From a virus (lineage: Duplodnaviria; Heunggongvirae; Uroviricota; Caudoviricetes), in IMG/VR virus record IMGVR_UViG_2663762908_000007: a stretch of DNA of 19,072 bases. One strand, given 5' to 3'. Numbering within the stretch: position 1 is the first letter of the stretch; each line of letters begins with the position of its first letter. This document shows positions 1,963 to 13,828 of the stretch, piece by piece. The position numbers and the translations under genes are program-made. Under the pieces are notes generated by a model, which ran no database searches, was not told where the DNA came from, and worked only from the letters and a program-made list of their open reading frames with translations.

Positions 1963-3552
1963 TTACTTAATAAGCAGCGGTACGCCCTGGATACGACGGG
2001 CTACGCCAGTCGGGCAGCAGGCCCAGACTACTTCCCATTTATCGAATTCCGCCTGCGTAACTTTCAGCACATACGGTTCTGTACCGTCAGCATCAGGATC
2101 ACGAGGAGCCACCAGAGCGCCGGAGGCGACAAAGCGATCTAAAAGTTTGGTCATCCCTTTAGTCAGGCCAGCCGCAGTAATACCGTCCGGGCTATGCTTC
2201 ATCTGTCGGGCTAACTGGACAAAGAAACGGCTGATTGCATTCATCAGGGATGGGACGTGCTGGAAGTGCAGATAGTTATCCTGCGTGCAGCAAGTTAAAG
2301 CATCGTCGATGATCATCTGGCCAGAGGTGCCAACAGATACTTTATTGAGACGGCCCTTGACCATTGCTTCTTCGTCCGGGGTATCTTCCGGATACAGCGG
2401 TTGAATTGACGCACGAGCAATGACGGCACGTTCTTCACCAGCCGGTGAGTAATGCCAACCGCCGACATCAGAGTTTTTCTTGACGCCACGAGCTTTCACC
2501 GCATACGCCACGCCAGACAGACCAAAGACCACACGGGATTGGGTCCATTTGTCTTTGCAGGAGAACGGGTAGTGATAGACAGAACAGCTTACATAATCGG
2601 TACCAAGTAAACCGGTATCCTCAACAGCTGGTAGTGCTTCTGCGTACGTTAATGTCGGTTTGACATCAAAGAAGCCATCAATCAGGCGATCTGCACAGAT
2701 TTTACCTAATGCGGTGATAGCCGCATTGTCATAGCAGCCCAGGCCAAGAACAGCGGTGTACATGTACGGCGCATTGTTCAGAACTTTCACCGCACGCAGG
2801 TACGTAGCGGTTGAGATTTTCGACTGATCGCCGTTGGTACCGCCAGTGAACGCCAACGATTTTTTGTTTGTTACTTTCGCTGTCGAAATCAGCTCTTCAT
2901 TAACAACCGCGCGCAAATATTTAGAACGGGCTTCCAGAGCCGTAGGCAGATAACACAAGCGGCCCATGTCATCTTTCGCTTCTTCCGCCAAAGACACAGT
3001 GTGTGTCTCCAGGGTCGTTACCACGCCGAGCGAAGTCGTCTGGGGCAGTTTTAAGAGGAAGCGTTCATTACCCGCGCTGTCCGCTGTTGCCGTTTCGATG
3101 GTTAACTCACGGGTAGGTGAAATACACGGATCACCATCATCAACGTAGATAGCAAAGGCTTCGCCACTATCAAGTTCAATTTCAGAACCGTATGGCAACG
3201 CACTGTAAGCCGGTTCGCCTGATTCATCGAACATAATAATCGGGAACTTCGCATCATCCGGAACAGCGCGAACAACGTAACCAGACGTTTGCTGAATAGC
3301 TTCGTATACATGGCGAATTGGTTCGAACTGTGAGCCGGAAGACGGCTTCAGCGGTTCGCCGAGAACATCTTCGTAATTGGACTCAGTAACCGCAAGAACA
3401 GTAAACGGCTTGCCACGCGCAAATACGCCAATACCAGCCCACAAGCTGCTATTTAATGCAACACCGGTAGATAACGTCGCATCGGCATTGATCGGGCTAA
3501 CCGCGACGCCGGATGCATTACCTAATGACTGTTGAATTGAATATTGAGACAT
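1963..3552 (-). CDS. phage structural protein, 529 aa, possibly contractile tail sheath (P1 gp22-like)
   Basis: Long ORF with SD AGGGA upstream of the ATG at 3552. The size (about 58 kDa) and a W-x-x-S-P-A-G segment (GGWHYSPAGEE) resemble the conserved W-K-A-P-A-N/G region of myovirus sheath proteins. In P1 the head and tail genes 21-22-23 lie next to par. Assignment is from memory, not a search. Confidence 0.55.
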   Translation of the reverse strand: MSQYSIQQSLGNASGVAVSPINADATLSTGVALNSSLWAGIGVFARGKPFTVLAVTESNYEDVLGEPLKPSSGSQFEPIRHVYEAIQQTSGYVVRAVPDDAKFPIIMFDESGEPAYSALPYGSEIELDSGEAFAIYVDDGDPCISPTRELTIETATADSAGNERFLLKLPQTTSLGVVTTLETHTVSLAEEAKDDMGRLCYLPTALEARSKYLRAVVNEELISTAKVTNKKSLAFTGGTNGDQSKISTATYLRAVKVLNNAPYMYTAVLGLGCYDNAAITALGKICADRLIDGFFDVKPTLTYAEALPAVEDTGLLGTDYVSCSVYHYPFSCKDKWTQSRVVFGLSGVAYAVKARGVKKNSDVGGWHYSPAGEERAVIARASIQPLYPEDTPDEEAMVKGRLNKVSVGTSGQMIIDDALTCCTQDNYLHFQHVPSLMNAISRFFVQLARQMKHSPDGITAAGLTKGMTKLLDRFVASGALVAPRDPDADGTEPYVLKVTQAEFDKWEVVWACCPTGVARRIQGVPLLIK

Positions 3553-3567
3553 AACTTTCCCTGTTAT

Positions 3568-3586
3568 GCGCCCCGCACGGGGGCGC
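3568..3586 (-). other. intergenic GC-rich stem-loop between the 205-aa ORF and the sheath-like gene
   Basis: GCGCCCC-gcacg-GGGGCGC, a 7-bp perfect stem, 26 bp after the stop at 3613 and just upstream of the RBS of the 529-aa gene. No clear U-tract, so it may be a processing or attenuation element rather than a terminator. Confidence 0.35.
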
Positions 3587-3612
3587 TATGTTAAACGGAG
3601 AACTTCCCCTGA

Positions 3613-4230
3613 TTACTCAGAGTCACCGGCATCAATCGTGTCGCCGCTTATGAAGTTAAGCCCGCCTTTTTTGGCCATTGTCAGCGTTACACGAGTGAAG
3701 TAATCAGCGCCGTTGCGTGGGTGCATATCGTTGATAGCCGAACCCCACAGCGTGCTACGGTTGACCAGCGCCGGAGTGGTCGGATGCTGGAACGGGATGG
3801 CCGGGACAGCATCACCAGTCACGAAGCCTGCTTTACCCGGATTTTCATCACGGACGTAGCACAGCACATCCATCGAGCTGAACTGAATGTTCTCAGTCGT
3901 TAAGTTCTTACAAATACCAGCAGGTACTTCGTACACTTTCACGTTACCGAACAGGGTACCGATGTAGTGAACATACGGAGTCTGGATATAGTCTTCGGCT
4001 GGCTGGAAGAAATCCTTCGGCAACTGTTTGAAGAAAGATGCTGCATCAGCACCAGCAAACATCCCCATCGCACCAGAAGATTTAACGCGCTCAATAATGT
4101 CGCGATATACAGTCTGGAATTTGCCACGAATGATGGTTGCCCATACATCAAAGGACTGGTTAACCGGCAGAGCGATGTCAAAGGTGTCGGTCGCAAGAGT
4201 GCGCCAGATCATGATGCGAAGACGCAGCAT
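3613..4230 (-). CDS. 205-aa ORF, probably the C-terminal part of a major head protein (P1 gp23-like); in the same frame as the upstream 360-aa ORF, separated only by a TAA
   Basis: ATG at 4230-4228 has AGGA only 1 nt upstream, a poor RBS. The frame is continuous with ORF 4237-5319 except for the TAA at 4239-4237 (...EYLSH * QD MLRLR...). Confidence 0.5.
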   Translation of the reverse strand: MLRLRIMIWRTLATDTFDIALPVNQSFDVWATIIRGKFQTVYRDIIERVKSSGAMGMFAGADAASFFKQLPKDFFQPAEDYIQTPYVHYIGTLFGNVKVYEVPAGICKNLTTENIQFSSMDVLCYVRDENPGKAGFVTGDAVPAIPFQHPTTPALVNRSTLWGSAINDMHPRNGADYFTRVTLTMAKKGGLNFISGDTIDAGDSE

Positions 4231-4236
4231 ATCCTG

Positions 4237-5319
4237 TTAATGAGACAGGTATTCCTTCAGGGTGCGGAACTGTAGGGAACCCAGGTCTAGACCAAATTCA
4301 CGCTGTGCTTCATACGCCGCCTGTACCGTGTGCTCAGCCGCGATAACGAACTGACTTGGGAACAGGGTGTATTTCTTCATTTCGTGGTTGATCAGCGGGA
4401 TCAGCTCAGGAGCGGCTTCAATATTGATTTCCGTCTCAATTGCGATCTCAGTGCCTTTATCCGGCGCTTTGGAGAACGACAGGGCAATCTGACCAATGTT
4501 GTAGTTCAGAGAGCAGGTAACAGTGATTTGCTCACCAGCAGCATTAGTAAACGAGTGAAGTAGGCTGCCGGAACCGTTATCAACAACAGACTTAATACGG
4601 TTAACGTAGATGTTAGTACGACCTTTTCGGATTGGCACATTCTGGCCTTCGAAGTCTTCCATCTTGAAGGTTGCGGTTTTGCTGGTGCCATCGGAGCTTG
4701 CCACCAGCACATAGCGGCGACGTAACTGGCTGTACACACCGACGGATTGCATGTCCAGAACATCACCAGCAGCATAAGAACCAAAAGAGGAACCTGCCAC
4801 GTTAAAGACTTCATAGATGTCGGACTGGTCACGCGTAACCGGAATGAAGGTACACGCATCAGCGGTAGCTGCCCCCAACTGAACAGGCAGGATCATCGCG
4901 AGGAATAAAGGCAGACGCATAACACCGTCAGAAACGCTCATCATCTCTGCTGCGACGGATTCCAGCATCGCTTTATTAGTGGCATCCATGCTATTGCGGG
5001 TGGACTCAATCAGGCAGTTTTCCAGCGTCTGGTGGCAGGAGGTCAGAATTTCCGAACGCGGCATAGATTTATGTGCTGCGGCGTAGTCAGCCAGTGCACT
5101 TGCCCACGCTGTAGCGATTTGAGCGGTGGCATTATCAGAGATACCCGCAAAAATCGGGTCTTTACGTGCAGCTTCAAGGATAGATGCGGCACGCGCGGCA
5201 TCATCTTTAATGAATTGGTTATCAGTACCGAACTGCGCAGTGCTTGCCCAGCCAAGCACAGCTTTAGAGCGTTTTGCGATATCTGCAATACGATTCTGGT
5301 ATTCGCGTAAGTTACTCAA
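4237..5319 (-). CDS. 360-aa ORF, probably the N-terminal part of a major head protein (P1 gp23-like) with an Ala-rich helical N-terminal region
   Basis: TTG start at 5319-5317 with SD AAGGAAGAG about 5 nt upstream. It is the first gene downstream of parS, where P1 carries gene 23. Combined with ORF 3613-4230 it gives about 568 codons, matching a roughly 62 kDa head precursor. Confidence 0.55.
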   Translation of the reverse strand: MSNLREYQNRIADIAKRSKAVLGWASTAQFGTDNQFIKDDAARAASILEAARKDPIFAGISDNATAQIATAWASALADYAAAHKSMPRSEILTSCHQTLENCLIESTRNSMDATNKAMLESVAAEMMSVSDGVMRLPLFLAMILPVQLGAATADACTFIPVTRDQSDIYEVFNVAGSSFGSYAAGDVLDMQSVGVYSQLRRRYVLVASSDGTSKTATFKMEDFEGQNVPIRKGRTNIYVNRIKSVVDNGSGSLLHSFTNAAGEQITVTCSLNYNIGQIALSFSKAPDKGTEIAIETEINIEAAPELIPLINHEMKKYTLFPSQFVIAAEHTVQAAYEAQREFGLDLGSLQFRTLKEYLSH

Positions 5320-5344
5320 TTTACTCTTCCTTAAACATAAGGCA

Positions 5345-5530
5345 CTTGTGTGAATCCCTTTTCGGAAGAGATTTTATTGAAAGTCACTTGTTGACTTTCT
5401 CGCGAAAAGTAATTTTTTAAATTTTTTGTGCGGGGAAGTGGACGGTGAATGCAGGCGTTAAATCGTGGGAATTTCAGTCTGAAATTCTCCTAAAAAACAC
5501 ATGCAAATCATAATGTTAGCAATGAAATTG
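5345..5530. promoter_or_regulatory. parS: candidate parS centromere (ParB binding site) downstream of parB
   Basis: Located where P1 parS lies, directly after parB. Contains the heptamer palindrome GAATTTCAG-t-CTGAAATTC (5469-5487), further TGAAAT/GTGAAT-like heptamers (5350, 5446, 5523), an AT-rich tract (5411-5428) that could be the IHF site, and a second palindrome GAAAGTCA-cttgt-TGACTTTC (5380-5400). Confidence 0.45.
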
Positions 5531-5583
5531 GTGCAGGACATTTTAGGAAGGGGAGGGGCTAACACCACCTCCCACCAGCGGGA

Positions 5584-6549
5584 TTATTCCCCAGCAGACA
5601 TTTTCCCAATGATTTTTTTTATTGCTTCGTCAATTTCAGTTTGCACTTCAGACGGGAGTCTAGAGAACTCGTAGGCGACAACCCGTTTTTTCGGATCGGA
5701 CTTCTTTCGAGCATATTGGCGACGGTCAGAGAAGTCTCGCAGCTTCTCAACCACCACAGATTTAACCGGCGCGGGCTTCAGGCTTTTGCTTTCCGCTTGG
5801 AAGATAGCCAGTATCTTCGCTTTATCCTCTTGCGCGCCCTCAGTCTCTGCAATTCGTTCGCGCACCGTATCAACCAGCTCTTCAATAGGCACGCTTTTAG
5901 CGTTGGCATCCTCGGAGATCTGGAGCAGTAACTGGTAATCTGGCAGGGCGAGATCGCTGGCAACAGGGAAGACAGCAATCATCTCATCCGGCACCGCTGC
6001 CGCCTGGAACGCGCGCGTAACTTTAGCCTTTGAAATGTTCTCAGCGCGGGCGATCTCTTCTTTGGTCATGCTCTTACCATACATAACCTCGAAGCGTTTA
6101 CCCAGTTCGCGCAGGGTGTGTTCGCGGGCTGTCTGGATATCAATGGCCAGCTGGCGTGCATCCGCCAGGCTGATCTCATCTTTCGTCACCAGAATCTCAA
6201 ATTTCGTTTCATTGAAGATACACGCAGCGCGGCGACGTGATCCGTCCAATACCTCAATGCGCTCCCCAACCATACGACCAATAGCCGGGAAGAACTGTTG
6301 CAATTTAATGGTGCGGGAAATATCGCTTACCGACTCAGGGGTGAGCAGAGACTGATCGCGGCCGTTAACTGCCGGGTCAACGAACGTGCGCGACTCAATC
6401 TCACCACTCAGCACAACGGTAAGCAAAAATTTAGCCTGGCGGCCAGATTTTAGGGTAAAGGTTTTGGTGCCTTCACTGCCTTCAAGCATGCGAGCAAACT
6501 CGGAGCTATTCTTGCCCAGCACTCGTCCACGGGAAACTATTTTTTTCAT
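5584..6549 (-). CDS. parB: partition protein ParB (type Ia, P1 family), 321 aa
   Basis: The translation carries the ParB signature EVLDGSRRR and an HTH region, and aligns by eye with P1 ParB but is clearly divergent. It overlaps parA by 4 bp (ATGA). Confidence 0.9.
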   Translation of the reverse strand: MKKIVSRGRVLGKNSSEFARMLEGSEGTKTFTLKSGRQAKFLLTVVLSGEIESRTFVDPAVNGRDQSLLTPESVSDISRTIKLQQFFPAIGRMVGERIEVLDGSRRRAACIFNETKFEILVTKDEISLADARQLAIDIQTAREHTLRELGKRFEVMYGKSMTKEEIARAENISKAKVTRAFQAAAVPDEMIAVFPVASDLALPDYQLLLQISEDANAKSVPIEELVDTVRERIAETEGAQEDKAKILAIFQAESKSLKPAPVKSVVVEKLRDFSDRRQYARKKSDPKKRVVAYEFSRLPSEVQTEIDEAIKKIIGKMSAGE

Positions 6550-7757
6550 GCCGCCTCACCCCTAACAAACTCAATTCGATCAAACACAGCCTTAGTGAAA
6601 CGCTCGGCCTCGGTTCGTGCCTTCTTCAGCGCCTCTGCACTGCCTGGATACGATTGCGGGTTGGCACTGATTACGGTGTCGAAAGACTCGCCGCATCGCT
6701 CAAATCCATCCAGACGAGGCAGAGAAGAGTCCAGAATGTTGCTGGCGTAAACCTCACGCGCAAGGCTGTGTGATGTCTCGTGATCGCGCTTGCCGGTCAT
6801 CTTCGACATAAAACCAATGCTGGCGCTTAAACGCGGTTCTACGCCTTCCTCCTCCAGTTGCTCCAGCATTTCTGGCAGACGGGTGAGATATTTCAGTGTT
6901 GAGTGGAAGTCAACCTGGGCTGGTGGGGTAGGGGTAAGCAGCAAATCGCTGGCCGCCAGACCGTTGAGCAGGAACGGATCCAGGTGTGGGCCGGTATCAA
7001 TAAAGATAAAGTCATAATCATCCGCAACACGATCAATGATATTGCGTCGAAGGATTTCGTACTGATTTTGTCCGGGAAGATGCTCTTCAACCAGCTCTTT
7101 CCATTGGCTGGCAACAAAGCCATCGTCGATAGAGGCTGGAATCACGTCTACGCCAGGAACGATGGTCGGACGAATCACCTCTTTGCGTAGCGTCTCCGCG
7201 TCCAGGTCGTTCAGCATCGCCTGCGCGGCGGTTTCCAGGATGGAACCAATACTGTGAGTATGGTCGAGGAACATTGTGCTGGATGCCTGAGGGTCAAGGT
7301 CAATTACCAGAATGCGCAGATCGTGACGCAGTAAATCCTGATGCACACGCAGAGCGTGCGCCAACGTGACTGTGGAAACCGTTTTGGATACGCCACCCTT
7401 CAGGTTTACGACAAAAATAACGTAAGGCGATTTGTGAATGTCGCGATATTTTGGGATCTTACGGTGGGCATAGATATCAATGACGTTCTGGATGGTCAGC
7501 GCGTACTGTTCAACGTTACCGACCTGTTTCTTGTTGAACTGGTACCCATTATCTTCCATCTCTTTGATGGCCTGCTCCACAATGCGGCGGCTCAGCTTCG
7601 GCAACTTTGCCACAGCGTTACGAGTGAACGTCTGATAATACTCGGTCTGATTGAACTCTTTGCGCTGCTCTTCAATATCCTGACTCATGGCCTTAAGTAA
7701 TGCGCTTGCACGAAGAGCTATGGTGCCGACACCGCCGTAATCGCGTTTCATCATCAT
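6546..7757 (-). CDS. parA: partition ATPase ParA (type Ia, with N-terminal regulatory extension), 403 aa
   Basis: Deviant Walker A NLKGGVSKTVST, and the motifs ILVIDLDPQ and RLDGFERCGESFDTVISANP, typical of the P1 ParA family. Sits upstream of parB. Confidence 0.92.
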   Translation of the reverse strand: MMMKRDYGGVGTIALRASALLKAMSQDIEEQRKEFNQTEYYQTFTRNAVAKLPKLSRRIVEQAIKEMEDNGYQFNKKQVGNVEQYALTIQNVIDIYAHRKIPKYRDIHKSPYVIFVVNLKGGVSKTVSTVTLAHALRVHQDLLRHDLRILVIDLDPQASSTMFLDHTHSIGSILETAAQAMLNDLDAETLRKEVIRPTIVPGVDVIPASIDDGFVASQWKELVEEHLPGQNQYEILRRNIIDRVADDYDFIFIDTGPHLDPFLLNGLAASDLLLTPTPPAQVDFHSTLKYLTRLPEMLEQLEEEGVEPRLSASIGFMSKMTGKRDHETSHSLAREVYASNILDSSLPRLDGFERCGESFDTVISANPQSYPGSAEALKKARTEAERFTKAVFDRIEFVRGEAA

Positions 7758-7866
7758 CTCCTTATCATTTCGTATGAGTGAATTGTACGTTTGATTCTGC
7801 TACGTGCAACTTTCTTTGATTCGTGCGTCAATTATTGCACGTAAAGAAATGGCGATGAGGCTATTA
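7758..7866 (-). promoter_or_regulatory. parAB promoter/operator region (inferred)
   Basis: Intergenic region upstream of parA with the inverted repeat ACGTGCAA (7802-7809) / TTGCACGT (7835-7842). Type Ia ParA proteins autoregulate at an operator overlapping their promoter. Confidence 0.4.
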
Positions 7867-8119
7867 GATGTGTGCTGGAGGGATGATGCAGGACCAGAAT
7901 GTGCGATAGAGGGAAGTCGCATTGAATTATGTGCTGTGGAGGGATCGCTGGTATCAAATATGTGTGCTGGAGGGAAAGGCAGAGAATTACATGTGCACTG
8001 GAGGGAAAAACGGATGGACAGATGTGTGCTGGAGGGAAAGTCTGGGCAAACTGCGGGGCGTCCCCCTCCAGCGCACATCAAAAACAGGAAATTGGACAAG
8101 CCTTCCCTCCAGCACACAC
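7867..8119. repeat. incA: incA-like iteron array downstream of repA (about 8 copies of the P1-type 19-bp iteron, 6 in one orientation and 2 inverted)
   Basis: Copies of GATGTGTGCTGGAGGGAAA or close variants at 7867, 7898 (degenerate), 7928, 7960, 7991 and 8021, and inverted copies (CCCTCCAGC[A/G]CACAT) at 8061 and 8101. The last abuts the repA stop codon. Confidence 0.85.
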
Positions 8120-8980
8120 TTATTCTGGGAGTTTCAGCTTTGGATTGCGAGAATGGACGATTACAAAACTTTCCCGGCCTTTCTTCTCAATTGAACAGTC
8201 GAGATAGCCGATTGTTTTAAGCTGTTCTATCGCTTTCTTAATGATACGGTTTTGCTCGCCAACAGCTGACTGCAAAGCCAGGCGCTCACGGATTCGGGCG
8301 AAAGATAGCGGCAACGGATTCTGCGGAAGGCTTTCGATGAAAGTGTAAATGGCTTGTGCAGCTTCTTTCTTCGGAAGGGCACGCAAGGCGTGGTGTTGCA
8401 ACAGAACGCGATAATCAAGCTGGAACAGCTCCCACAGCTTCGAATCAGCCTCCAGTTCTATCAGATCAAGGTCAGCATCAAAACGCCCGACCTTCAGCAG
8501 ACCAGTCTGATAGCCGCCTTTAGCATCTTTTCCGCGCTTAAAAGCGATACCCTTGTTACGCAAGCGTCCAAGTGATTCATGAATGGTTAAACGCAGTTTC
8601 GCATCCAGACGTTTTGAGGGGAAACCACAGGCTTTAGCGAATTCCTGAAACGATAACTGGATGGTGTTTGAGGACAAGCCGTATTTGCTGAACGCGTAGA
8701 TGACACCGATCCACGTTTTGAAATCAGTATCCATATCGAGTCGAGGACCGGTGATTTTAATATCATCGTAACCCTCGGCTTTAGCTATCTCCAGCTGGGA
8801 AAACGCTTTGGTGGCATCAATCTCTTTACTTTCTCCTTTGCTCTTTGATGGCTTCGGAACGAATACCCCCAAGCGCATCAACGCTACAGGCTGCACAGTG
8901 TTGTTTGAATTAACTGTTAGTTCTTTTGCCTTACTTTCAATGTCTGCGTAAAGAATATCGGATATAAATGATTGATTCAT
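8120..8980 (-). CDS. repA: iteron-binding replication initiator RepA (P1 R-replicon type), 286 aa
   Basis: An ORF of the P1 RepA length, flanked upstream by five direct iterons and downstream by the iteron array, which is the diagnostic incC-repA-incA arrangement. Confidence 0.92.
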   Translation of the reverse strand: MNQSFISDILYADIESKAKELTVNSNNTVQPVALMRLGVFVPKPSKSKGESKEIDATKAFSQLEIAKAEGYDDIKITGPRLDMDTDFKTWIGVIYAFSKYGLSSNTIQLSFQEFAKACGFPSKRLDAKLRLTIHESLGRLRNKGIAFKRGKDAKGGYQTGLLKVGRFDADLDLIELEADSKLWELFQLDYRVLLQHHALRALPKKEAAQAIYTFIESLPQNPLPLSFARIRERLALQSAVGEQNRIIKKAIEQLKTIGYLDCSIEKKGRESFVIVHSRNPKLKLPE

Positions 8981-9658: not shown

Positions 9659-9976
9659 TGAAGTGGCACACTGAATTTGGCCACCTGAACAGAGGTGATA
9701 TGCTCACCTCAGAACAACACAGGTGCTCCAATGAAAAAAAGAAATTTCAGCGCAGAGTTTAAACGCGAATCCGCTCAACTGGTTGTTGACCAGAAATATA
9801 CGGTGGCAGATGCCGCCAAAGCTATGGATGTTGGCCTTTCCACAGTGACAAGATGGGTCAAACAACTGCGTGATGAGCGTCAGGGCAAAACACCAAAAGC
9901 CTCTCCGATAACACCAGAACAAATCGAAATACGTGAGCTGAGGAAAAAGCTACAACGCATTGAAATGGAGAATGAA
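9659..9976 (+). mobile_element. IS911-like (IS3 family) left end: terminal inverted repeat plus the 5' part of orfA
   Basis: Starts with TGAAGTGGCACACTGAATTTGG, the IS3-family terminal TG...CA structure and the IS911 end as I recall it. orfA ([21 protein letters not shown]...) follows at 9731. Identity to IS911 ends at 9976. Confidence 0.8.
9731..9976 (+). CDS. IS3-family transposase OrfA (IS911 InsN-like), 3' end replaced by foreign sequence
   Basis: The translation [82 protein letters not shown] is an HTH plus leucine-zipper OrfA. The track ORF begins 12 codons early at 9695, and its tail ([13 protein letters not shown]) is not OrfA. Confidence 0.75.
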
Positions 9977-10099: not shown

Positions 10100-10726
10100 T
10101 TATTTCTGCTTCGTTAACGTGTCATAACTGGTCATCAAATTACGATAATCAGGAATGTGGTTAGAGAACAACGTCGCCAGTCCTTCAATATCATTACGCC
10201 AGTCGCGATGCAGCTCGCACGCCACGCCGAACCATGTCATCAATTGCGCACCAGCTTGCGACAAGCGATCCCATGCCGAATGCCGGGTAATTTCATTAAA
10301 GGTCCCTGACGCGTCAGTCACGACAAAGACGTCAAACCCTTCTTCAATGGCTGAAAGCGCCGGGAATGCCACGCAAACTTCGGTTACCACACCGGCAATA
10401 ATTAACTGTTTTTTACCTGTCGCTTTGACAGCTTTTACAAAATCTTCGTTATCCCAGGCGTTAATATTTCCCGGGCGAGCAATGTAAGGTGTATCGGGGA
10501 ATTGTGCTTTCAGTTCTGGAACTAATGGGCCGTTAGGACCGGTTTCAAAACTGGTGGTAAGAATAGTTGGTAAGTTGAAATACTTAGCCAGGTCACCCAG
10601 CGCCAGCACGTTATTTTTAAACTTATCGGGTTCGATATCCCGTACAAGGGAAAGTAAACCAGCCTGGTGATCAACAAGCAAAACGGCAGCATCATTTTTA
10701 TCAAGACGAACATACGGTTTGGTCAT
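10100..10726 (-). CDS. ycaC: isochorismatase-family hydrolase YcaC, 208 aa
   Basis: The translation matches E. coli YcaC as I recall it (MTKPYVRLDKNDAAVLLVDHQAGL...), including the cysteine of the catalytic triad in the VTEVCV region. Confidence 0.9.
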   Translation of the reverse strand: MTKPYVRLDKNDAAVLLVDHQAGLLSLVRDIEPDKFKNNVLALGDLAKYFNLPTILTTSFETGPNGPLVPELKAQFPDTPYIARPGNINAWDNEDFVKAVKATGKKQLIIAGVVTEVCVAFPALSAIEEGFDVFVVTDASGTFNEITRHSAWDRLSQAGAQLMTWFGVACELHRDWRNDIEGLATLFSNHIPDYRNLMTSYDTLTKQK

Positions 10727-12188: not shown

Positions 12189-12397
12189 ATGAATTCAAGC
12201 AGAGTGTGAACTTACTGTTTCACACTCTGCTTTTTTGTTTCTTCTATCTGACTTGCTTTATTCCAAATTTTATTCGTTTAAAAATAAAATGTGCAGCAGG
12301 TTATAATTTTGCATTTCGCTATTTCCGCACTTCTTATTTGCCGCGCATAATCCCTCGTTTTACAGATGCCCCTTTAATTTTGGCGAAGGATTTGTCT

Positions 12398-13828
12398 ATG
12401 GCTGGGAATGTTCAGGAAAAACAGTTGCGATGGTACAACATTGCGCTGATGTCTTTTATCACTGTCTGGGGTTTTGGCAACGTTGTTAATAACTATGCCA
12501 ACCAGGGGCTGGTGGTTGTTTTTTCATGGGTGTTTATCTTTGCACTCTATTTCACACCTTATGCGCTAATTGTTGGTCAGTTAGGCTCGACCTTCAAAGA
12601 TGGGAAGGGCGGGGTCAGTACCTGGATTAAACACACGATGGGACCCGGACTGGCTTATCTCGCCGCGTGGACCTACTGGGTGGTGCATATTCCCTATCTG
12701 GCACAAAAACCCCAGGCAATTCTGATTGCGCTCGGTTGGGCGATGAAAGGCGACGGTTCGCTAATCAAAGAATATTCAGTCGTAGCGTTACAGGGGTTAA
12801 CGCTGGTGCTGTTTATCTTCTTTATGTGGGTTGCTTCACGCGGTATGAAATCGCTGAAAATCGTCGGTTCTGTGGCAGGGATTGCTATGTTTGTTATGTC
12901 GCTCCTGTATGTGGCGATGGCGGTAACCGCGCCTGCAATTACTGAAGTGCATATTGCGACCACAAACATTACCTGGGAAACGTTCATTCCTCATATCGAC
13001 TTTACCTACATTACCACTATTTCAATGCTGGTTTTCGCGGTTGGCGGAGCAGAGAAGATTTCTCCTTACGTTAATCAAACGCGCAACCCAGGAAAAGAAT
13101 TTCCAAAAGGGATGTTATGCCTGGCGGTGATGGTTGCGGTTTGTGCCATTCTGGGCTCGCTGGCGATGGGGATGATGTTTGATTCGCGTAATATCCCGGA
13201 TGACTTAATGACCAACGGTCAGTATTACGCCTTTCAGAAGCTGGGCGAGTATTACAACATGGGTAATACTTTAATGGTGATTTACGCCATTGCGAATACC
13301 CTGGGACAAGTAGCGGCGCTGGTATTCTCGATTGATGCCCCGCTTAAAGTGCTATTAGGTGATGCTGACAGCAAATATATTCCAGCCAGTTTATGTCGTA
13401 CCAACGCTTCTGGTACGCCCGTTAATGGCTATTTTCTGACCCTGGTACTGGTGGCGATTCTGATTATGCTGCCGACTCTCGGCATTGGTGATATGAACAA
13501 TCTCTATAAATGGCTGTTGAACCTTAATTCGGTAGTGATGCCGCTGCGTTATTTATGGGTATTTGTTGCATTTATTGCAGTCGTTCGCTTGGCGCAGAAA
13601 TATAAACCAGAATATGTCTTTATTCGTAATAAGCCTCTGGCAATGACCGTCGGGATTTGGTGTTTTGCCTTTACCGCCTTTGCCTGTTTGACGGGGATCT
13701 TCCCGAAAATGGAAGCCTTCACTGCAGAGTGGACCTTCCAGTTGGCGCTGAATGTTGCAACGCCGTTTGTGCTGGTAGGATTAGGACTGATATTCCCGCT
13801 GCTGGCGCGTAAAGCGAATAGTAAATAA
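12398..13828 (+). CDS. ycaM: APC-family amino-acid transporter YcaM, 476 aa
   Basis: The track ORF starts at 12206, but the conserved protein starts at the ATG at 12398 (MAGNVQEKQLRWYNIALMSF...). A polytopic membrane protein. Confidence 0.88.
   Translation: MAGNVQEKQLRWYNIALMSFITVWGFGNVVNNYANQGLVVVFSWVFIFALYFTPYALIVGQLGSTFKDGKGGVSTWIKHTMGPGLAYLAAWTYWVVHIPYLAQKPQAILIALGWAMKGDGSLIKEYSVVALQGLTLVLFIFFMWVASRGMKSLKIVGSVAGIAMFVMSLLYVAMAVTAPAITEVHIATTNITWETFIPHIDFTYITTISMLVFAVGGAEKISPYVNQTRNPGKEFPKGMLCLAVMVAVCAILGSLAMGMMFDSRNIPDDLMTNGQYYAFQKLGEYYNMGNTLMVIYAIANTLGQVAALVFSIDAPLKVLLGDADSKYIPASLCRTNASGTPVNGYFLTLVLVAILIMLPTLGIGDMNNLYKWLLNLNSVVMPLRYLWVFVAFIAVVRLAQKYKPEYVFIRNKPLAMTVGIWCFAFTAFACLTGIFPKMEAFTAEWTFQLALNVATPFVLVGLGLIFPLLARKANSK

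Follow-up and report, generated by a model that had tools for sequence, protein, structure and literature searches.

The segment at 5457-5539 on the minus strand of the window (the whole 19,072-nucleotide stretch of DNA that was analysed) is, judging by its sequence, very probably the parS centromere of a P7-type ParABS module on an IncY (P1/P7) replicon. The feature is genuine but ordinary: the P7-type parS has long been known, and the window carries a common natural variant of it. The pairing of a partition specificity of its own with a P1 replicon is likewise already known from phage P7, and the arrangement in the window is exactly that one. A previous sequence-only reading of this DNA had proposed a parS layout after parB, with heptamer repeats around a tract possibly bound by IHF, and this layout aligned with the annotated parS of P7. 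The significance of the site beyond correct annotation is small; the same module is carried by P1/P7-like phage-plasmids, or by remnants of these, in hundreds of cases from E. coli and Salmonella. The IncY typing of the replicon, however, conceals two par specificities (P1 and P7) that are relevant to the co-residence of such elements.

The repA, parA and parB genes map to the minus strand, so that the region after parB lies towards decreasing coordinates (Table 1). The site begins 45 bp past the parB stop codon, in a parA-parB operon whose ParA has an N-terminal HTH. On the minus strand, 260 bp separate the parB stop from the next gene, which starts with TTG at 5319, and this interval contains the palindrome on which the sequence-only reading was centered. 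P7 (X17529, AF503408; P1par family, P7 species) shows the same order of genes, repA-incA-parA-parB-parS-LP23-gene 23. The centromere had been assigned to positions 5345-5530; the upper part of that range does hold it, but box B1 falls outside it, and some 110 bp at its lower end (5345-5456) belong to the gene 23 promoter region.

Table 1. Features of the parS site and its surroundings in the window.
Feature	Coordinates	Strand	Sequence or length	Remarks
parS box B1 (left arm)	5534-5539	minus	GTCCTG	Place of annotated P7 boxB(1), 5 nt upstream of A1; P7 GTCCCG, P1 TCGCCA
parS box A1	5522-5528	minus	ATTTCAT	Same as annotated P7 boxA(1); invariant in 15/15 P7-type alleles
IHF core	5506-5518	minus	minus strand TAACATTATGATT, plus strand AATCATAATGTTA	Aligns with IHF sites annotated in P7 and P1
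parS box A2	5479-5485	minus	ATTTCAG	Same as annotated P7 boxA(2); one palindrome arm
parS box A3	5471-5477	minus	CTGAAAT (inverted ATTTCAG)	Same as annotated P7 boxA(3); invariant in 15/15 alleles
parS box B2	5466-5471	minus	TTCCCA	Same as annotated P7 boxB(2); 1-nt overlap with A3 as in P1 and P7; invariant in 15/15 alleles; P1 TCGCCA
parS box A4	5457-5463	minus	ATTTAAC	Place of annotated P7 boxA(4); P7 GTTTCAC, P1 ATTTCAC
Predicted late promoter LP23 of gene 23 (outside parS)	5371-5389	minus	-22 box AAGTGACTT, -10 TAAAAT	Annotated in P7 and P1 records
Gene 23	3613-5319	minus		Major capsid protein in P1 annotation
parB	5584-6549	minus	321 aa	P7-type centromere-binding protein; Pfam ParB PF08775, E = 9e-33
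parA	6546-7757	minus	403 aa	Type Ia partition ATPase with N-terminal HTH; Pfam HTH_54 + AAA_31
repA	8120-8980	minus
Isochorismatase-family gene	10100-10726
MFS transporter	11040-12188
Amino-acid permease	12206-13828

Alignment with the annotated parS of the P7 genome record AF503408 was box for box, with every spacing equal and a total of 83 bp, the same as in both the P1 and P7 parS. The four heptamers follow the P1par-family order, with A1 in the left arm and the inverted pair A2/A3, then A4, in the right arm, and the two hexamers occupy the P1par-family places next to A1 and A3. Boxes A1, A2, A3 and B2 are identical to those of P7 and a putative IHF core is in the same position, while B1 agrees at 5/6 positions and A4 at 5/7. 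The palindrome of ATTTCAG heptamers pointed out in the earlier reading was confirmed: GAATTTCAG-t-CTGAAATTC spans 5469-5487, with arms of 9 nt each (5469-5477 and 5479-5487) that are 100% complementary and 1 nt apart. A third ATTTCA heptamer, at 5523-5528, lies 43 bp start to start from the nearer palindrome arm, and this A1-to-A2 spacing is equal to that of P1 and P7.

The hexamer ATTTCA is modestly enriched in the window (28 observed, against 15 ± 3.9 expected), but this count alone is too weak for locating the site, so a composite pattern was used instead. The pattern ATTTCA-N35-39-ATTTCANNNTGAAAT had a single match in the window, at 5471-5528 on the minus strand, and was matched in 0/200 shuffles. 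For the IHF core, 12 of the 13 positions of the consensus WATCARNNNNTTR were found on the plus strand. Scanning with one mismatch is uninformative by itself (40 matches in the window, against 28 expected), and the core was retained since its match coincides with the IHF position annotated in P1 and P7.

When ParB and the site were aligned with those of P1 and P7, the closest relative was P7. The ParB of the window shares 99.4% identity with P7 ParB (X17529, AF503408; 319/321 residues), and 42.9% with P1 ParB; the description of ParA and ParB as members of the P1 family that are divergent from P1 was thus borne out. ParA differs from P7 ParA by two residues (402/404 aligned positions identical, stop included), and RepA is 100% identical to RepA of both P1 and P7, in agreement with the canonical P1 replicon recognized before. 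ParB departs from that of P7 only by K240Q and K251Q. P1 ParB has Ala and Thr at these two positions, neither of which belongs to the box-B-reading C-terminal domain; in this C-terminal part, the ParB proteins of the window and P7 are the same. The two substitutions were considered as a co-adapted change, which was rejected given the residues found in P1 and their location. Their covariation with the window-type parS is also countered by the presence of that allele elsewhere with a ParB identical to that of P7.

The parS of P1 (incB; NC_005856, 58912-58994) has the same B1-A1-IHF-A2-A3-B2-A4 architecture and all the same spacings, but its boxes are different. The sequence-only reading had noted a one-base difference between the heptamer ATTTCAG and the P1 box ATTTCAC; the A boxes ATTTCAC and ATTTCAA of P1 are replaced in the window by ATTTCAT and ATTTCAG. 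At both B positions P1 has TCGCCA, whereas the window has TTCCCA and GTCCTG. The P1 hexamer TCGCCA was not found within 3316-5717, so that the remark that no such box B was visible holds for the P1 form; the box is nevertheless present in its P7 form, because TTCCCA (5471-5466) is in the expected place, and GTCCTG (5539-5534) fills the other B position. Both hexamers fit the P7 species form of box B, with TC at hexamer positions 2-3.

The P1 and P7 par systems are reportedly species-specific, with box B as the discriminator, and the discrimination is said to reside in positions 2-3 of the hexamer. The two systems are not known to cross-complement or to show mutual partition incompatibility. 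The box B forms of the window (TTCCCA / GTCCyG, vs TCGCCA in P1), together with the P7-type ParB, would confer P7 rather than P1 partition specificity. The distinct partition specificity that had been proposed would indeed be of a non-P1 kind, but it is not new, as ParB is that of P7 at all but two residues and the site matches the AF503408 parS.

In P1, parS is built of heptamers (A boxes) and hexamers (B boxes) around an IHF site, with the HTH of ParB reading the A boxes and its dimer domain reading the B boxes (PMC5016525, PMC3597684). By analogy with the P1 and P7 systems, IHF would bind the central core of the window site and bend the DNA, and a ParB dimer would place its HTH domains on the heptamers and its C-terminal dimer domain on the hexamers, bridging both arms. 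The loaded complex could then stimulate the ParA ATPase, so that plasmid copies would be placed on both sides of the division plane. No single part should be presumed functional, since the host element appears to be a decaying phage remnant with a nonsense codon in gene 23 (see below).

A different explanation for the palindrome and its nearby repeats is that they form a promoter or operator of the downstream gene 23, with ParB binding elsewhere. The lower part of the range 5345-5530 does contain LP23 and a second palindrome, GAAAGTCA-N5-TGACTTTC at 5379-5399, which includes the LP23 -22 box and is followed by TAAAAT. These elements are 100% conserved in the window, P7 and P1, and below ~5420 the three sequences are nearly base for base alike; in P1, moreover, predicted sigma-70 promoters of gene 23 overlap parS. 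The earlier suspicion that the palindrome at 5380-5400 might be an unrelated promoter element was therefore correct, but the centromere is still inside the upper part of the range. Against the promoter or operator explanation, GAATTTCAG-t-CTGAAATTC falls exactly on the annotated P7 ParB boxes A2 and A3, and its differences between P1 and P7 parallel those of ParB, whereas the LP23 region is the same in the one as in the other. The composite parS pattern is matched nowhere else in the window, and a simple sigma-70 scan of 5250-5650 gave no promoter. It is extremely unlikely that the repeats serve gene 23 and not ParB.

The consensus scan of 5250-5650, which covered promoters and terminators and found none, speaks neither for nor against LP23, as the annotated late promoter is not of the sigma-70 type. 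Two other elements were observed around parS: a G/C-rich inverted repeat (GGGAGG...CCCTCCCC; 5553-5575, minus strand) between the parB stop and box B1, and a C-rich tract (5425-5445) after box A4. P7 has both of them, and P1 has them in part; neither was called by the terminator scan, and they are possible candidates for a transcription stop or for a limit to ParB spreading.

Within the P7-like module, divergence is greatest in the centromere itself (5457-5539, compared with L001 7012-7094). Nucleotide identity to the reference P7 is 99.3% for repA, 99.5% for parA and 99.5% for parB, vs 69.9% for the 83-bp parS, where 58/83 positions match and the 25 differences are almost all in the spacers. 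Identity to a known parS had been named in the sequence-only reading as a point against a distinct site; the site is not identical to the P7 reference parS. Three PLSDB plasmids, one of them L004 (CP088401.1), carry the window site unchanged. In this alignment, the sharp local patch of divergence suggests recombinational exchange or relaxed spacer constraint, rather than gradual divergence. An import of the spacer allele from the nearest non-P7 relatives (ParB 69%, 62% and 55% identical) was rejected, since their post-parB sequences are unrelated.

The 99-bp site matched 235 PLSDB plasmids, which fall into a window-type class (~136 records with at least 80% identity, mostly from E. coli) and a reference-P7 class (~99 records with 60-80% identity). 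Fifteen P7-type alleles were compared, for which 13 PLSDB plasmids were fetched, and IncY typing was obtained for 13/13 of the PLSDB plasmid records examined. None of the 15 alleles showed a length change. Variable columns amounted to 3/32 in boxes A1, A2, A3, B1 and B2, vs 29/44 in the spacers (Fisher p = 5e-7, a value that is only indicative because the 15 alleles are related and hand-picked), and within the IHF core neither TAA nor TGAT varied. A diverged spacer beside strictly conserved boxes and a conserved length can be regarded as a natural footprint of the requirements of ParB and IHF. Box A4 was variable at 2/7 positions among the natural alleles; in P1, mutational work is reported to have found A4 dispensable, which the variability of this box would fit.

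The change from C to T at position 5 of box B1 (GTCCTG) was present only in the window and in L004 (CP088401.1) among the 15 alleles, all other sampled P7-type alleles and both P1 boxes having C at this position; it is the one private feature of the window. The left arm could be weakened by this change, and A4 also departs from the reference. A ParB with no differences from P7 ParB accompanies both the window-type allele (L005, L006) and the reference-type allele (L015, L016), indicating that one ParB serves both, which argues for a shared specificity.

With its diverged spacer, B1 GTCCTG and A4 ATTTAAC, the window-type allele could also be a centromere with a function of its own, either a new partition-incompatibility subtype or a site with altered IHF dependence compared with the reference P7. 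Selection or a recombinational swap could explain a site so much less conserved than repA, parA and parB, and the existence of two plasmid allele classes is in line with this possibility. Limited identity 3' of parB is also on record for a P1-like plasmid with P7-type parAB, which shares only ~81% identity with P7 in that region (Venturini et al. 2019; PMC6906374). However, the boxes read by ParB (A1, A2, A3 and B2) do not differ between the two classes and keep their spacing, the IHF core is kept at all but one of its positions, and the part of the window ParB that reads box B is that of P7. Since the same ParB occurs with either allele, both would compete for one protein. With the window allele widespread among E. 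coli IncY plasmids, and with ParB proteins of one and the same sequence accompanying either allele, a new specificity is unlikely, and we consider a functionally distinct centromere very improbable; the site is better described as a P7-type parS in one of its natural alleles.

There is only a slight chance that the spacer allele, ~30% diverged and carried by about half of the P7-type IncY plasmids, is a selected or recombined variant that alters IHF dependence, the geometry of the complex or competitive strength. If it were, a hierarchy among co-resident P1/P7-like phage-plasmids, or a partial escape from their partition incompatibility, could result, and the private B1 box of the window would further weaken the left arm.

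The P1par family is very large, with ParB relatives in 4,529 PLSDB plasmids. Other enterobacterial P1par centromeres, such as those of Klebsiella/Raoultella IncFIB plasmids, have the same heptamer and hexamer layout downstream of parB, but their spacers are unrelated to those of the window and their ParB proteins are 40-69% identical. The Klebsiella plasmids with 69% ParB identity have TCACCA as box B (L017 1400-1500), whereas the Raoultella/Klebsiella IncFIB plasmids with 62% ParB identity have TTCCCA / TTCCCT (L018 1400-1485), that is, the P7 hexamer despite a divergent ParB. The presence of TTCCCA in these plasmids raises the question of a cross-reaction with the P7 par system.

Upstream of parA, the incA region (7758-8119) is shorter than in P7, the repA-parA interval being 362 bp vs 393 bp; the 31-bp difference is the length of a single iteron unit. 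The number of incA-type iterons detected was 8, vs the 9 annotated in P1 and P7, and the alignment with P7 falls to 69% around 8050-8168. Judging by the incA of P1, the loss of a control iteron could slightly raise the copy number.

Downstream of parS, gene 23 has an in-frame TAA at 4237-4239 (codon 361), where P7 and P1 have GAA (Glu). It is thereby divided into ORFs of 360 and 205 aa, with only three other protein differences from P7. The TAA reflects either a sequencing error or a mutation that has recently inactivated the gene in a decaying prophage.

The P1/P7 homology of the window ends near 9660, and genes for an isochorismatase-family protein, an MFS transporter and an amino-acid permease follow. 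The element resembles the remnant of a phage-plasmid in which the replicon and the partition module have been kept, and an intact rep/par region beside decaying phage genes fits a phage-plasmid turned into a plasmid that simply carries cargo. The best-matching E. coli plasmid, NZ_JBRBQE010000003.1, is 99.7% identical over about half of the window. In it, a rep/par module of the P7 type and a small number of phage structural genes lie among copies of IS1, IS3, IS30 and IS421 and metabolic genes, and gadC, murI, a Dyp-type peroxidase/encapsulin pair and a plasmid-borne rpoH are also found near the module.
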